From assembly GCF_003334255.1 (NCBI RefSeq), contig NZ_QOWU01000055.1: a stretch of DNA of 38,946 nt; one strand, 5' to 3'. The translations under genes were made by a program, and so were the position numbers. This stretch comes from Escherichia coli (lineage in GTDB: Bacteria > Pseudomonadota > Gammaproteobacteria > Enterobacterales > Enterobacteriaceae). Positions 392 to 37,294 of this stretch are shown here, one piece after another. Every line of letters begins with the position of its first letter. The stretch's first letter is position 1. Under the pieces are notes generated by a model, which saw only the letters and a list, made by a program, of their open reading frames with translations, was not told the origin of the DNA and ran no database searches.

Positions 392-1444
392 ATGAAAAAA
401 ATACCCTGCGTGATGATGCGAGGTGGAACCTCGAGGGGCGCGTTCCTGTTAGCGGAACATTTACCCGAAGATCAAACGCAGCGCGATAAAATATTGATGG
501 CAATTATGGGTTCCGGTAACGATCTGGAAATTGACGGTATTGGCGGCGGTAATCCACTGACCAGTAAAGTCGCCATTATTAGCCGTTCCAGCGATCCGCG
601 TGCTGATGTCGATTATCTGTTTGCGCAGGTAATCGTTCATGAGCAACGTGTCGATACCACGCCTAACTGCGGCAATATGCTGTCTGGTGTTGGGGCATTC
701 GCCATTGAAAATGGTTTGATTGCAGCGACTTCGCCAGTTACTCGCGTACGTATCCGCAACGTCAATACGGGTACGTTCATCGAAGCTGATGTGCAAACGC
801 CAAATGGTGTTGTCGAGTACGAGGGTAGCGCCAGAATTGACGGCGTACCGGGTACTGCCGCACCGGTTGCGCTCACTTTCCTGAATGCCGCTGGAACCAA
901 AACCGGAAAAGTTTTCCCGACTGATAATCAGATTGATTATTTTGACGATGTCCCGGTGACCTGTATCGATATGGCGATGCCAGTCGTCATTATTCCGGCT
1001 GAATATCTGGGAAAAACAGGTTATGAATTACCGGCGGAACTGGATGCCGACAAAGCATTATTAGCCCGCATTGAATCTATCCGTCTACAAGCGGGTAAAG
1101 CAATGGGCTTAGGTGATGTCAGTAATATGGTTATCCCTAAACCTGTGCTTATTTCTCCAGCGCAGAAAGGCGGGGCAATTAATGTGCGTTATTTTATGCC
1201 GCATTCTTGCCATCGCGCGCTGGCGATAACCGGTGCTATTGCTATTTCCAGTAGTTGTGCATTGGAAGGCACCGTCACCCGACAAATCGTCCCTTCTGTA
1301 GGATACGGCAATATCAATATTGAACACCCCAGTGGTGCGCTCGACGTTCATTTAAGTAATGAAGGTCAGGATGCCACGACGTTACGCGCATCTGTTATTC
1401 GGACGACCAGAAAAATATTTTCCGGTGAAGTTTATCTTCCCTGA
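392..1444 (+). CDS. ybhH: PrpF/methylaconitate-isomerase-family protein (putative isomerase)
   Basis: 350-aa ORF starting MKKIPCVMMRGGTSRGAFL; PrpF-like family resemblance; position divergent from the LysR gene. Confidence 0.85.
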   Translation: MKKIPCVMMRGGTSRGAFLLAEHLPEDQTQRDKILMAIMGSGNDLEIDGIGGGNPLTSKVAIISRSSDPRADVDYLFAQVIVHEQRVDTTPNCGNMLSGVGAFAIENGLIAATSPVTRVRIRNVNTGTFIEADVQTPNGVVEYEGSARIDGVPGTAAPVALTFLNAAGTKTGKVFPTDNQIDYFDDVPVTCIDMAMPVVIIPAEYLGKTGYELPAELDADKALLARIESIRLQAGKAMGLGDVSNMVIPKPVLISPAQKGGAINVRYFMPHSCHRALAITGAIAISSSCALEGTVTRQIVPSVGYGNINIEHPSGALDVHLSNEGQDATTLRASVIRTTRKIFSGEVYLP

Positions 1445-1483: not shown

Positions 1484-1504
1484 TTCTGTATGAGTCATAC
1501 AGAA
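1484..1504. promoter_or_regulatory. 21-bp perfect palindrome TTCTGTATGA-G-TCATACAGAA in the ybhH-ybhI spacer (operator or intercistronic RNA hairpin candidate)
   Basis: Checked base by base: positions 1484-1493 are the reverse complement of 1495-1504, centred on G1494. Lies 16 bp upstream of the ybhI ATG. Confidence 0.5.
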
Positions 1505-1519
1505 AGAACAGGATTTTAA

Positions 1520-2953
1520 ATGAATAAGAAATCGTTATGGAAGCTAATTCTGATATTAGCGATCCCATGTATTATTGGTTTTATGCCAGCTCCGGCAGGA
1601 TTAAGCGAACTGGCGTGGGTGCTTTTTGGTATTTACCTGGCGGCCATTGTGGGGCTGGTTATCAAGCCTTTCCCGGAACCTGTCGTACTGTTAATTGCCG
1701 TTGCTGCCTCAATGGTGGTGGTCGGTAACTTATCCGACGGTGCGTTTAAAACCACCGCCGTATTAAGCGGTTACTCTTCAGGTACCACCTGGCTGGTGTT
1801 CTCGGCGTTTACCTTAAGCGCCGCATTTGTGACCACCGGTTTAGGTAAACGTATTGCCTATCTGCTGATTGGTAAAATCGGTAACACCACGCTGGGTCTG
1901 GGTTACGTTACGGTATTCCTCGATCTGGTACTGGCTCCGGCAACACCGTCTAACACCGCGCGTGCGGGCGGCATTGTGTTACCGATCATCAACAGCGTGG
2001 CGGTGGCTTTGGGGTCCGAACCGGAAAAAAGTCCGCGTCGTGTCGGACATTACCTGATGATGTCCATTTACATGGTCACCAAAACCACCAGCTATATGTT
2101 CTTTACCGCAATGGCGGGGAACATTCTGGCGCTGAAAATGATCAACGACATTCTGCACCTGCAAATTAGCTGGGGTGGATGGGCGCTGGCAGCCGGATTG
2201 CCGGGCATCATTATGCTGCTGGTCACCCCGCTGGTGATTTACACCATGTATCCACCAGAAATTAAGAAGGTGGATAACAAAACCATCGCTAAAGCGGGCC
2301 TTGCCGAACTAGGACCGATGAAAATCCGCGAAAAAATGCTGCTCGGTGTCTTTGTGCTGGCGCTGCTGGGCTGGATTTTCAGTAAGTCTCTGGGGGTTGA
2401 TGAATCCACCGTGGCAATCGTTGTTATGGCAACCATGCTGCTGCTGGGTATCGTTACCTGGGAAGACGTGGTTAAAAATAAAGGCGGCTGGAATACCTTA
2501 ATCTGGTACGGCGGTATTATCGGCTTAAGCTCCTTATTATCGAAAGTTAAATTCTTCGAATGGTTAGCTGAAGTCTTTAAAAATAACCTGGCATTTGATG
2601 GTCACGGTAACGTTGCTTTCTTCGTTATTATTTTCCTCAGCATTATCGTGCGTTATTTCTTCGCTTCCGGTAGTGCCTATATCGTTGCTATGTTACCGGT
2701 ATTTGCCATGCTGGCGAACGTCTCCGGCGCACCGTTAATGTTAACCGCGCTGGCACTGTTGTTCTCCAACTCCTATGGCGGCATGGTTACTCACTATGGC
2801 GGCGCGGCAGGTCCGGTCATCTTTGGCGTGGGTTATAACGATATTAAATCCTGGTGGTTGGTCGGTGCGGTACTGACGATATTAACCTTCCTGGTGCATA
2901 TCACCCTCGGCGTGTGGTGGTGGAATATGCTGATCGGCTGGAACATGCTGTAA
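1520..2953 (+). CDS. ybhI: DASS-family (divalent anion:Na+ symporter-like) membrane transporter, putative di/tricarboxylate permease
   Basis: 477-aa highly hydrophobic ORF with multiple predicted TM segments; family assignment from sequence recognition and synteny. Confidence 0.85.
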   Translation: MNKKSLWKLILILAIPCIIGFMPAPAGLSELAWVLFGIYLAAIVGLVIKPFPEPVVLLIAVAASMVVVGNLSDGAFKTTAVLSGYSSGTTWLVFSAFTLSAAFVTTGLGKRIAYLLIGKIGNTTLGLGYVTVFLDLVLAPATPSNTARAGGIVLPIINSVAVALGSEPEKSPRRVGHYLMMSIYMVTKTTSYMFFTAMAGNILALKMINDILHLQISWGGWALAAGLPGIIMLLVTPLVIYTMYPPEIKKVDNKTIAKAGLAELGPMKIREKMLLGVFVLALLGWIFSKSLGVDESTVAIVVMATMLLLGIVTWEDVVKNKGGWNTLIWYGGIIGLSSLLSKVKFFEWLAEVFKNNLAFDGHGNVAFFVIIFLSIIVRYFFASGSAYIVAMLPVFAMLANVSGAPLMLTALALLFSNSYGGMVTHYGGAAGPVIFGVGYNDIKSWWLVGAVLTILTFLVHITLGVWWWNMLIGWNML

Positions 2954-2956
2954 ATA

Positions 2957-3083
2957 TTCTCGTCATACTTCAAGTTGCATGTGCTGCGTCTGCGTTCGCT
3001 CACCCCAGTCACTTACTTATGTAAGCTCCTGGGGATTCACTCGCTTGTCGCCTTCCTGCAACTCGAATTATTTAGAGTATATC
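2957..3083. repeat. ERIC/IRU intergenic repeat element
   Basis: Contains exact matches to both classical ERIC primer sequences: CGCTCACCCCAGTCACTTACTT (2997-3018, reverse complement of ERIC2) and ATGTAAGCTCCTGGGGATTCAC (3019-3040, ERIC1R). Outer boundaries are approximate. Confidence 0.85.
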
Positions 3084-3096
3084 CATTTATTATCTT

Positions 3097-3135: not shown

Positions 3136-5397
3136 ATGATCAAGTTATCTGAAAAAGGCGTGTTTCTCGCCAGTAATAACGAAATAATTGCCGAAGAACA
3201 TTTCACCGGCGAAATTAAAAAAGAAGAAGCCAAAAAAGGCACTATTGCCTGGTCTATTCTCTCTTCGCATAATACGTCCGGAAATATGGATAAACTTAAA
3301 ATTAAGTTTGATTCATTAGCCTCTCACGATATTACCTTTGTTGGTATTGTACAGACCGCTAAAGCGTCCGGTATGGAACGTTTCCCGCTGCCGTATGTGC
3401 TGACCAACTGCCATAACTCACTCTGCGCCGTCGGCGGCACTATTAACGGTGATGACCATGTTTTTGGTTTATCGGCGGCCCAGCGTTATGGCGGTATTTT
3501 TGTGCCTCCGCATATTGCGGTCATCCATCAATATATGCGTGAGATGATGGCAGGCGGCGGCAAAATGATCCTCGGGTCAGACAGCCACACCCGTTACGGT
3601 GCATTAGGGACAATGGCAGTCGGTGAGGGCGGCGGTGAGTTGGTAAAACAGCTGCTTAATGACACCTGGGATATCGACTATCCGGGCGTGGTTGCGGTGC
3701 ATCTGACCGGAAAACCTGCGCCGTATGTGGGGCCACAGGATGTGGCGCTGGCTATCATTGGCGCGGTGTTCAAAAACGGTTACGTCAAAAACAAAGTCAT
3801 GGAGTTCGTTGGACCGGGCGTTAGCGCGCTCTCTACCGATTTCCGTAACAGCGTTGACGTGATGACCACTGAAACGACCTGTTTAAGTTCTGTCTGGCAA
3901 ACCGATGAAGAAGTCCATAACTGGCTGGCGCTGCACGGTCGCGGCCAGGATTACTGCCAGCTTAACCCTCAACCGATGGCGTACTACGATGGCTGCATCA
4001 GCGTTGATTTAAGCGCCATCAAACCAATGATTGCGCTGCCGTTCCACCCGAGCAACGTGTATGAAATCGACACACTGAACCAGAACCTGACCGACATTCT
4101 GCGTGAGATTGAAATTGAGTCCGAACGCGTGGCGCACGGTAAAGCCAAACTCTCGCTGCTGGATAAAGTGGAAAATGGTCGCCTGAAAGTGCAGCAGGGG
4201 ATTATCGCGGGCTGTTCTGGCGGTAACTACGAAAACGTCATCGCGGCGGCGAATGCACTGCGCGGTCAATCCTGTGGCAATGACACCTTCTCGCTGGCAG
4301 TTTACCCGTCATCACAGCCGGTGTTTATGGATCTCGCCAAAAAAGGTGTGGTAGCAGATTTGATTGGCGCAGGCGCAATCATCAGAACCGCGTTCTGCGG
4401 CCCATGCTTTGGCGCGGGCGATACGCCAATCAACAACGGTTTGAGTATTCGCCACACCACGCGTAACTTCCCGAACCGCGAAGGCTCTAAGCCAGCTAAT
4501 GGGCAGATGTCAGCGGTGGCGTTGATGGACGCTCGTTCTATCGCTGCGACTGCGGCAAACGGTGGCTATTTAACCTCTGCCAGCGAACTTGATTGCTGGG
4601 ACAACGTGCCGGAGTACGCCTTCGATGTAACGCCGTATAAAAACCGTGTTTATCAGGGCTTTGTGAAAGGGGCAACTCAGCAACCGCTGATTTACGGGCC
4701 GAACATTAAAGACTGGCCGGAATTGGGTGCGCTGACTGACAATATCGTCCTGAAAGTGTGCTCGAAGATCCTCGACGAAGTGACCACCACCGACGAACTG
4801 ATTCCTTCCGGTGAAACCTCTTCTTATCGTTCAAATCCGATTGGTCTGGCGGAGTTTACCCTGTCTCGCCGCGATCCCGGTTATGTTAGCAGAAGTAAAG
4901 CGACTGCTGAGCTGGAAAATCAGCGTCTGGCGGGGAATGTCAGCGAGCTGACAGAGGTGTTTGCGCGCATTAAGCAGATTGCTGGTCAGGAGCATATTGA
5001 TCCGCTGCAAACTGAAATTGGCAGCATGGTCTATGCGGTGAAACCAGGCGATGGTTCTGCGCGTGAACAGGCGGCGAGCTGCCAGCGTGTGATTGGCGGT
5101 CTGGCGAATATTGCCGAGGAGTACGCGACTAAACGCTATCGTTCTAACGTCATCAACTGGGGGATGTTACCGCTGCAAATGGCGGAAGTACCAACCTTTG
5201 AAGTGGGGGATTACATTTACATCCCTGGCATTAAAGCGGCGCTGGATAATCCGGGTACGACGTTTAAAGGTTATGTGATCCATGAAGATGCGCCGGTAAC
5301 GGAAATTACGCTCTATATGGAAAGTCTGACTGCTGAAGAGCGCGAGATTATCAAGGCGGGTAGTTTGATTAACTTCAATAAAAACCGTCAGATGTAA
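3136..5397 (+). CDS. ybhJ: Aconitase-family protein (putative hydratase/dehydratase)
   Basis: ORF track frame 3112..5397; ATG at 3136 preferred (GGAG 6 nt upstream) giving 753 aa. Aconitase-family resemblance across the whole length. Confidence 0.85.
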
Positions 5398-5409: not shown

Positions 5410-5617
<208 letters not shown>

Positions 5618-6914: not shown

Positions 6915-7034
6915 AGGTTGCTCCGGGCTATGAAATAGAAAAATGAATCCGTTGAAGCCTGCTTTTTTATACTAACTTGAGCGAAACGGGAAGGTAAAAA
7001 GACAAAAAGTTGTTTTTAATACCTTTAAGTGATA

Positions 7035-13064: not shown

Positions 13065-13084
13065 AACTGTTTTTTTATCCAGTA
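13065..13084. promoter_or_regulatory. LexA (SOS) box of uvrB overlapping a perfect TATAAT -10 hexamer
   Basis: AACTGTTTTTTTATCCAGTA with CTG-N10-CAG spacing (13067-13082); TATAAT at 13083-13088; 70 bp upstream of the uvrB start. Confidence 0.85.
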
Positions 13085-15217: not shown

Positions 15218-15315
15218 GCCTGATGCGCTACGCTTATCAGGCCTACATTTTCTCCGCAATATATTGAATTTGCGCGGTTTGTAGGCCGGATAAGGCGTTC
15301 ACGCCGCATCCGGCA
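15218..15315. repeat. BIME (two inverted REP elements) downstream of uvrB
   Basis: GCCTGATGCGCTACGCTTATCAGGCCTAC (15218-15246) and GTAGGCCGGATAAGGCGTTCACGCCGCATCCGGCA (15281-15315) with a conserved linker. Confidence 0.85.
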
Positions 15316-16529: not shown

Positions 16530-16676
16530 CACGCTAGTATCGGCATAACCACTAAACACTCTAGCCTCTGCACCTGGGTCAACTGATACGGTGCTTTGGC
16601 CGTGACAATGCTCGTAAAGATTGCCACCAGGGCGAAGGAAGAAATGACTTCGCCTCCCGTATCTGGAAAGGTGTAC
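16530..16676 (+). ncRNA. Moco riboswitch (cis-regulatory RNA) in the moaA 5' leader
   Basis: Leader ends with GAAGGAAGAAATGACTTCGCCTCCCG just before the moaA start, as expected for the molybdenum-cofactor RNA motif. The 5' boundary is approximate and no structure was computed. Confidence 0.55.
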
Positions 16677-17666
16677 ATGGCTTCACAACTGACTGATGCA
16701 TTTGCGCGTAAGTTTTACTACTTGCGCCTGTCGATTACCGATGTGTGTAACTTTCGTTGCACCTACTGCCTGCCGGATGGCTACAAACCGAGCGGCGTCA
16801 CCAATAAAGGCTTTCTTACCGTCGATGAAATTCGCCGGGTTACGCGCGCCTTCGCCAGTCTGGGCACCGAAAAAGTGCGCCTGACAGGAGGAGAGCCGTC
16901 TTTACGCCGCGACTTTACCGATATCATCGCCGCTGTGCGGGAAAACGACGCTATCCGCCAGATTGCGGTCACAACCAATGGTTACCGTCTGGAACGCGAT
17001 GTGGCGAGCTGGCGCGATGCGGGACTTACTGGCATTAACGTCAGTGTCGACAGTCTGGACGCCCGCCAGTTTCACGCTATTACCGGGCAGGATAAATTCA
17101 ACCAGGTCATGGCAGGGATTGATGCTGCATTTGAGGCCGGTTTTGAGAAGGTCAAAGTCAATACCGTGCTGATGCGTGATGTTAATCATCACCAGCTCGA
17201 CACCTTTCTGAACTGGATCCAGCATCGCCCTATCCAGCTGCGTTTCATCGAACTGATGGAAACGGGCGAGGGCAGCGAGCTCTTCCGTAAGCATCACATC
17301 TCTGGTCAGGTTCTGCGTGACGAGCTACTGCGTCGCGGCTGGATCCACCAATTACGTCAACGCAGCGACGGTCCCGCGCAAGTCTTTTGCCATCCAGATT
17401 ACGCCGGAGAGATTGGCCTTATCATGCCGTATGAAAAAGACTTCTGCGCCACTTGCAACCGCCTGCGCGTTTCCTCCATTGGTAAACTCCATCTCTGCCT
17501 GTTTGGTGAAGGCGGCGTTAACCTGCGCGATCTGCTGGAAGACGATACCCAGCAACAGGCGCTGGAAGCGCGTATTTCAGCGGCGCTGCGGGAGAAGAAA
17601 CAGACCCATTTCCTGCATCAAAACAACACCGGTATTACGCAAAACTTATCGTACATTGGCGGCTAA
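16677..17666 (+). CDS. moaA: GTP 3',8-cyclase (molybdenum cofactor biosynthesis protein A, radical SAM)
   Basis: ORF track frame 16596..17666; ATG at 16677 ([31 protein letters not shown]) giving 329 aa. Confidence 0.95.
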
Positions 17667-31921: not shown

Positions 31922-32020
<99 letters not shown>

Positions 32021-37165: not shown

Positions 37166-37294
37166 ACTTGTGCTGGACGTAGCGTAAACGCCTGATCCGT
37201 CCAACGGTTCGGATTTTGTAGGCCTGATAAGACGCGGTAGCGTCGCATCAGGCATCTGTTGCCGGATGCGGCGTAAACGCCTTATCCGTCCTAC
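37166..37294. repeat. REP/BIME cluster downstream of ybiJ
   Basis: GTAGGCCTGATAAGACGCGGTAGCGTCGCATCAGGC (37218-37253) and GCCGGATGCGGCGTAAACGCCTTATCCGTCCTAC (37261-37294), plus a partial REP-like segment upstream. Confidence 0.8.

Follow-up and report, generated by a model that had tools for sequence, protein, structure and literature searches.

A conserved interrupted dyad at the ybhH–ybhI boundary of Escherichia coli, probably a small cis-acting regulatory element

The ybhD-ybhH-ybhI-ybhJ genes of Escherichia coli form a poorly understood carboxylate-utilisation cluster. Here, we describe a short symmetric element at the boundary of two of these genes, ybhH and ybhI, in a stretch of E. coli DNA of 38,946 nucleotides (the window); gene names follow the RefSeq annotation under our BLAST hits, and positions are listed in Table 1. 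The two genes are co-directional, and the end of ybhH and the start of ybhI leave a spacer of 75 bp, in which a perfect palindrome ends 15 nt before the ybhI start codon. Deletion of ybhD relieves the repression of ybhH, and the two genes have been treated as a conserved cluster (PMC9068703).

Table 1. Features of the ybhH–ybhI boundary, in positions of the window.
Feature	Position	Strand	Remark
ybhH, upstream cistron	392..1444	+	PrpF-family isomerase, RefSeq '4-oxalomesaconate tautomerase'
Perfect palindrome TTCTGTATGA-G-TCATACAGAA	1484..1504	+	Arms of 10 nt, 100% complementary; 1 central nt
Conserved left arm TCTGTA	1485..1490	+	Invariant in 10/10 motif-bearing Escherichia/Citrobacter sequences
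Variable centre (TGAGTCA in E. coli)	1491..1497	+	Hairpin loop and loop-proximal pairs, or spacer between half-sites
Conserved right arm TACAGA	1498..1503	+	One change among ten motif-bearing sequences (MGH106)
CAGGA, ybhI Shine-Dalgarno region	1510..1514	+	5 nt 3′ of the palindrome, 5 nt 5′ of the ATG at 1520
ybhI, downstream cistron	1520..2953	+	DASS-family anion permease

The upstream edge of the window is rearranged. Positions 1–77 are the end of an IS1 element (annotated as IS1A/IS1B transposase, with IS1 copies matched at a median of 10 sites per genome), which truncates ybhD after ~43 codons and leaves a remnant at 78–208 on the minus strand, so that this strain probably has no active LysR repressor of ybhH. 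The exact IS1–ybhD junction, as one contiguous piece, occurs in no complete genome among the matches listed. A second, independent disruption of the cluster is found in E. coli E69, where an IS1-sized insertion of ~770 bp (locus L004, ~2226–2995) splits ybhH. The ybhD–ybhH intergenic region holds an invariant ATTAAT-N11-ATTAAT (285–307) followed by an invariant AAAGTCATTAG (317–327), both kept from Escherichia to Edwardsiella. Judged by its sequence, the former (a classic LysR T-N11-A box) is likely to be the YbhD operator; the published study of YbhD (PMC9068703) contains no description of it.

The first-pass annotation of this DNA, made from its letters alone, had reported an exact palindrome with CTG-N11-CAG spacing between ybhH and ybhI, and both descriptions are accurate, the arms being complementary over their full length. 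No other perfect palindrome in the window reaches an arm length of 10 nt. The same annotation had judged it unlikely by chance in a 75-bp spacer, which is true locally but does not carry over to the scale of a genome: at least one such palindrome arose in 8.5% of first-order Markov simulations of a 39-kb window, and this chance rate (0.09 per 39 kb), scaled by our own arithmetic, amounts to about ten per genome of ~4.6 Mb. Perfection alone is therefore weak evidence, and no proof, of function. Selection is indicated instead by conservation, which is stronger evidence than perfect symmetry.

An orthologue scan with one genome per species recovered 50 loci, with ybhD-ybhH-ybhI synteny kept in Escherichia, Citrobacter, Intestinirhabdus, Edwardsiella, Klebsiella and Entomohabitans. 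Among the scanned loci, E. coli and E. whittamii alone have the perfect 21-mer. At the same place, other Escherichia lineages, together with Citrobacter youngae, On2M and koseri, carry TCTGTA-N7-TACAGA around a freely varying centre. In these three Citrobacter, all 12 arm positions are identical to those of E. coli and the rest of the spacer is ~43% identical (Fisher p ~2e-4 for arms versus rest of spacer), while the central 7 nt agree at just 1–3 of 7 positions; centres seen in orthologues are TGAATAA, TGAGTAA, CTAACCA, TTAACAA, TTACCCG, CTTAATA and TAACGAA. Because the centre varies freely, perfect symmetry over 21 nt is peculiar to E. coli and E. whittamii, and in this comparison the selected object is a 6+6 interrupted dyad, not the perfect 21-mer. 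The initial stress on the 21-mer was thus misplaced, since outside those two species only TCTGTA-N7-TACAGA is kept.

The N7 spacing is found in nine of the ten aligned motif-bearing sequences (a set that excludes C. sedlakii as diverged). The tenth, Citrobacter sp. MGH106, combines an N6 spacing with TACGGA, which is the sole arm change in the set. Just downstream, every one of the ten motif-bearing orthologues has CAGG, and nine of them extend it to CAGGA, C. koseri alone having CAGGG. Elsewhere the motif has changed or is missing: the C. gillenii group has lost the right arm, the motif of C. sedlakii has diverged, that of Intestinirhabdus has been lost or reshaped, and among the scanned loci it is absent from the ybhH–ybhI spacers of Klebsiella and Edwardsiella.

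Several of these loci have features of their own. In C. koseri NCTC10786 (L044, 2856–5435), the only matches to ybhH, ybhI and ybhD are several frameshifted pieces, probably of pseudogenes, and the TCTGTA-N7-TACAGA dyad is intact. Klebsiella carries a different conserved dyad, TGTGAATRCGTTYCAC, with CRP-like half-sites ~40–55 nt 5′ of ybhI (L013, 3948–3963; same place in L014, L016 and L017). In K. indica this Klebsiella dyad is kept and ybhH is reduced to a fragment, which suggests an independent ybhI control region there. Upstream of the 60%-identical YbhI paralogues of Enterobacter, Lelliottia, Raoultella and C. werkmanii (L026, L027, L029, L032, L033 and L023, ~3930–4000) lies a conserved long hairpin with the block ATTCAGGGACCCTTTTCTCATGGGTGAGATATG, possibly a structured leader.

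Within E. coli, BLAST with a 201-nt query found the locus in 5334 of 5426 complete genomes. The palindrome and the 9 nt that follow it (1484–1513) show no difference in 5315 of the 5336 E. coli records; the adjoining 30 nt of the same spacer (1450–1479) are identical in only 3453, with 4 mismatches in ~1000 records and no detectable match in ~850 genomes. In an alignment with three divergent strains, likewise, the palindrome is unchanged and 7–8 substitutions cluster on its 5′ side. The spacer is thus unusually polymorphic over its 5′ half (1450–1479) in E. coli, directly beside the invariant palindrome. Part of this stretch, GATAAGGACAATCAATAAA at 1461–1479 (GATAATGACAATCAATAAA in B2-type strains), agrees with 14–15 of 19 positions of what we take to be the Fur-box consensus, which may be chance in A/T-rich DNA; its GTGAT..GGA.AATC is partly kept in Citrobacter.

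The element is single-copy on every scale that was searched. Further copies of TGTATGA-N-TCATACA, a search for which had been suggested at the outset, did not turn up: at up to 3 mismatches the window holds no meaningful second site, nor does it for TCTGTA-N7-TACAGA at up to 2, and BLAST of the 30-nt segment against the 5426 E. coli genomes found no additional near-perfect copy (the 30-nt and 201-nt queries each match one place per genome, median 1, maximum 2). The 9.4-kb orthologous loci contain no second conserved non-coding CTG-N11-CAG. A REP/ERIC-type repeat is ruled out by this single-copy status. Rfam 15 gave no match in the palindrome region at the gathering threshold, and at E ≤10 one meaningless snoRNA hit of 17 bits. 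An intrinsic terminator was also rejected, as the stem has 3 G-C pairs and the plus-strand tail, AGAAAGAACAGG, is not a U-tract; a terminator-like score appears on the minus strand only, where no gene converges. A promoter and terminator scan found neither a sigma-70-like promoter nor a plus-strand terminator in the ybhH–ybhI spacer, and the K-12-type spacer, read directly, has no TANNNT hexamer near the dyad. The palindrome is undescribed in the searchable literature, where searches for the sequence itself gave nothing relevant and searches for transcript-mapping data on ybhH–ybhI found none.

We regard the element as real, selected, single-copy and cis-acting and, on comparative grounds, as probably a small regulatory element, either an mRNA hairpin or a protein site. 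These are the two options, a dimeric regulator site and an intercistronic RNA hairpin, that the first-pass annotation had put forward; both still lead, and the data do not separate them decisively; the motif-bearing sequences show no covariation that would distinguish hairpin from operator. In our ranking the stem-loop comes first and the operator second, followed by an element with no dedicated function and then, well below these, by a small upstream open reading frame (uORF), a YbhD site and a LexA box, in that order.

Our preferred explanation, held tentatively, is a cis-acting stem-loop in a polycistronic ybhH-ybhI mRNA that affects the stability of ybhI mRNA or its expression. The spacer would be transcribed from the YbhD-controlled ybhH promoter, and in the transcript the arms UUCUGUA and UACAGAA would pair into an A/U-rich hairpin of 7–10 bp, 5 nt 5′ of the ybhI Shine-Dalgarno sequence. 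The most likely role of such a hairpin would be to adjust how strongly ybhI is expressed compared with ybhH, through an effect on mRNA stability or processing where the two cistrons meet; the hairpin could shield the 5′ end of a processed ybhI segment, or serve as a 3′ barrier for the ybhH segment. Intercistronic stem-loops are known to set differential stability and expression within operons, as in papB-papA processing and with the REP hairpins in malEFG. The ybhI element shares with them a short (here predicted) hairpin in the spacer between co-directional cistrons, the lack of a U-tract and a position just 5′ of the downstream ribosome binding site. It differs in being single-copy (not REP), in its A/U-rich stem of 7–10 bp and in the conservation of its arm sequence without compensatory change.

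Folding predictions speak for a stem-loop: as RNA, the 21-mer gives a predicted 9-bp stem closed by a 3-nt loop, at −9.3 kcal/mol in a local segment of 62 nt, and the hairpin is present in both the minimum-free-energy and the centroid structures of its 111-nt context. It is also the predicted local minimum-free-energy structure in E. coli and most motif-bearing orthologues (−5.6 to −9.7 kcal/mol). Counting against the stem-loop, the folding z-scores are unremarkable (−0.1 to −2.1). At pair 9–13, E. coli has G-C, two sister lineages have G.A and E. albertii has U-A; read as RNA, C. youngae (pair 8) and MGH106 (pair 4, from TACGGA) would each have a U.G wobble, and MGH106 has lost one loop base and retains the hairpin. 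The free loop, the series at pair 9–13, the two wobbles and the MGH106 loop deletion are compatible with a stem-loop. The covariation test on the motif-bearing orthologues found no covariation beyond shuffled controls on any measure: 82.8% of cells are paired, equal to the controls, and five of the ten pairs never vary. At pair 8, two lineages have a C.A mismatch, so that a G.U signal specific to the plus strand is missing. In favour of the stem-loop, species that lack the motif have other hairpins in this spacer, namely ATCGCGAA...TTCGCGAT in the C. gillenii group and CUCUGC...GCAGAAG in Intestinirhabdus.

How the stem-loop might act was approached by mutating the arms in silico. The predicted accessibility of the Shine-Dalgarno sequence, 0.34 in the wild type, was 0.44 and 0.34 with shuffled arms; it barely changed, and a translational role is therefore without computational support. 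Occlusion of the ribosome binding site is probably not the mechanism, and these models suggest that the element, if it acts as RNA, more likely affects processing or stability than ribosome access. An anti-Shine-Dalgarno or decoy arrangement, in which the left arm UUCUGU pairs with ACAGGA, was also considered and dropped: one designed right-arm mutant lowered accessibility from 0.34 to 0.14, but 30 random right-arm shuffles had a mean of 0.34.

The second possibility, to which we give somewhat less credence, is an operator for a putative dimeric DNA-binding protein. Reading the half-sites TCTGTA and TACAGA at a fixed N7, the protein would regulate ybhI either as a roadblock or through a weak internal promoter. 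Invariant arms around a free centre, with N7 in nine of ten sequences, are the classic signature of two protein half-sites and not of a constraint on structure alone, and all 12 arm positions are conserved where the rest of the spacer is near 43% identity. The outer CTG-N11-CAG moreover recurs after rearrangement, as CCTG-N11-CAGG in C. gillenii and Res13 and as TTCTG-N11-CAGGA in C. sedlakii, and Intestinirhabdus has TCTGC-N9-GCAGA 22 nt further upstream (chance of ~0.001 per spacer for the 8-base pattern). This argument from recurrence is post hoc, however, and the spacing is not strict: from CTG to CAG it is N10 in FP75 and MGH106, and N12 between the orthologous arms of C. sedlakii. The recA SOS box has the same arms, CTGTAT and ATACAG, and the Klebsiella dyad in the same spacer, together with a K. 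indica ybhI that lacks an intact ybhH beside it, hints at a control region of ybhI's own. Against an operator stand the failure to detect a promoter-like site in or near the spacer, the unusual position 26 bp 5′ of the second gene of an operon, and the want of a second copy in the window, in the 9.4-kb orthologous loci or (near-perfect) in E. coli genomes.

No known E. coli regulator motif fits such an operator; of those compared, LexA, lux-box, HexR, NikR and LysR-type (LTTR) sites each fail in a defining feature. Lux-type boxes (LuxR/SdiA) have the form CTG-N10-CAG; the ybhI dyad has the same arms, CTGTA and TACAG, but an odd total length, with N11 instead of N10. The HexR/YebK consensus is TGTAAT-N3-ATTACA, whose outer TGTA/TACA and N7 match, but whose fifth base is T or C in all ybhI orthologues, never A; the palindrome shares only the outer TGTA...TAC bases with TGTAATTTTCTTACG and TGTACTGCTTTTACG, candidate sites that were picked upstream of zwf and are not annotated operators. 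NikR binds GTATGA-N16-TCATAC; GTATGA and TCATAC are both present in E. coli but lie 1 bp apart, and their TGA/TCA parts are not conserved in orthologues. NikR, lux-box, CRP, MatP, SlmA, Fis, Nac and sigma-54 sites were all set aside on spacing or key bases. A more specific proposal, that TCTGTA-N7-TACAGA is the operator of an unassigned enterobacterial regulator, with SOS/lux-like half-sites at one extra bp, gating the YbhI carboxylate transporter independently of YbhD, is speculative and in our view rather doubtful.

It is less probable again, though by no means negligible, that the element has no dedicated function and is a chance palindrome or a relic (for example a decayed SOS-type box), the conservation of its arms reflecting limited divergence or a constraint unrelated to symmetry. 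By chance alone, a genome should contain some ten perfect palindromes of such length; the element is single-copy and free of covariation; the C. gillenii group, C. sedlakii and Intestinirhabdus have lost it or altered its form; and Klebsiella and Edwardsiella lack it. The dyad also persists in C. koseri despite the frameshifted pieces of ybhH and ybhI. Such an account sits poorly with the retention of 12 of 12 arm positions in two genera whose flanking spacer sequence is near random, and with 30 nt that are near-invariant in 5315 of 5336 E. coli records right beside a hypervariable stretch.

Further down the ranking, the palindrome overlaps a mini-ORF of nine codons at 1490–1519 (ATG AGT CAT ACA GAA AGA ACA GGA TTT TAA, encoding MSHTERTGF). 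The hairpin could in principle gate this uORF, from the ATG at 1490 to the TAA that ends at 1519, and couple ybhI translation by termination-reinitiation, which we consider very unlikely. An AAGGA lies 7 nt 5′ of its ATG, the ATG lies within the left arm, the TAA directly abuts the ybhI ATG, and an unbroken frame is found in E. coli, E. whittamii, Escherichia sp. E1V33 and SCPM-O-B-8794. E. albertii, Escherichia sp. MOD1-EC7003 and every arm-bearing Citrobacter, however, lack both ATG and TAA, so that a uORF cannot explain the conserved feature, and the peptide differs at 5 of 9 positions among close relatives.

The adjacent LysR-type regulator might bind the palindrome, as the first-pass annotation had surmised; such a distal or internal site of YbhD is a slimmer prospect still. 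YbhD does repress ybhH, and Table 6 of PMC9068703 lists 'ybhH, ybhI' in its column of ChIP-exo/predicted binding sites; neither the paper nor its supplements give a site sequence. The palindrome resembles LTTR boxes loosely, being likewise an interrupted dyad, with 4-nt arms and an N7 spacer, beside a LysR gene. Its symmetric positions are G-N11-C, however, and not T-N11-A; it lies ~1.2 kb from the divergent promoter; and the locus has a LysR box of its own at 285–307, which, with the AAAGTCATTAG block, is invariant upstream of ybhH and shares nothing with TCTGTA-N7-TACAGA. The surmise is thus unsupported, and in this strain ybhD is in any case cut by IS1.

The least likely reading is a LexA (SOS) operator that would make ybhI damage-inducible. 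LexA half-sites are present, CTGT at 1486–1489 and ACAG at 1499–1502, and the recA operator has identical arms: the ybhI site reads CTGTATGAG-T-CATACAG and the recA SOS box CTGTATGAGCATACAG, so that the palindrome equals the recA box (its sequence was verified) with one extra central T. The earlier remark that the palindrome is like a LexA box at a non-canonical spacing was therefore apt. LexA measures half-site spacing strictly, as is known from the LexA–DNA complex, and it is on spacing that a LexA box is rejected: E. coli and 8 of the 9 other motif-bearing orthologues have CTGT-N9-ACAG (CTG-N11-CAG) and not N8 (CTG-N10-CAG), MGH106 being the one both-arm lineage that departs from N9. The site further differs from the recA box in its flanks (TT/AA, not TA/TA) and in not lying at a promoter. 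An internal comparison is offered by CTGTTTTTTTATCCAG at 13067–13082, an SOS box in the same window, presumably the one upstream of uvrB, which has the canonical N8. The literature search shows no LexA link to ybhI or ybhH, the co-mentions of LexA and ybhH being unrelated.

Whichever of the two leading readings holds, a conserved cis element at the ybhH/ybhI boundary would imply that the levels of transporter and enzyme are set separately. As an mRNA hairpin, it would be one more case of intra-operon tuning. As a protein site, it would point to an uncharacterised regulator with SOS-box-like half-sites at +1 spacing and, were the operator reading true, to a new regulator–operator pair, possibly with a small regulon. 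For the wider field the finding is a modest one, and the element is of a familiar kind.

Other features of the window were recorded along the way. An ERIC element lies between ybhI and ybhJ (~2960–3085), and what we take to be the ERIC2 primer sequence matches 2997–3018 exactly, on the minus strand. At 6961–6975, GCTTTTTTATACTAA is present once; we take it to be the core of the phage lambda attachment site attB, which fits the gal-bio region. Rfam matches comprise a Moco riboswitch at 16545–16689 (103.6 bits), presumably the moaA leader, and two naRNA4 and two ES036 hits (5492–5562, 37221–37291, 15239–15280 and 31943–31985), both of which are presumably families of REP-type repeats.
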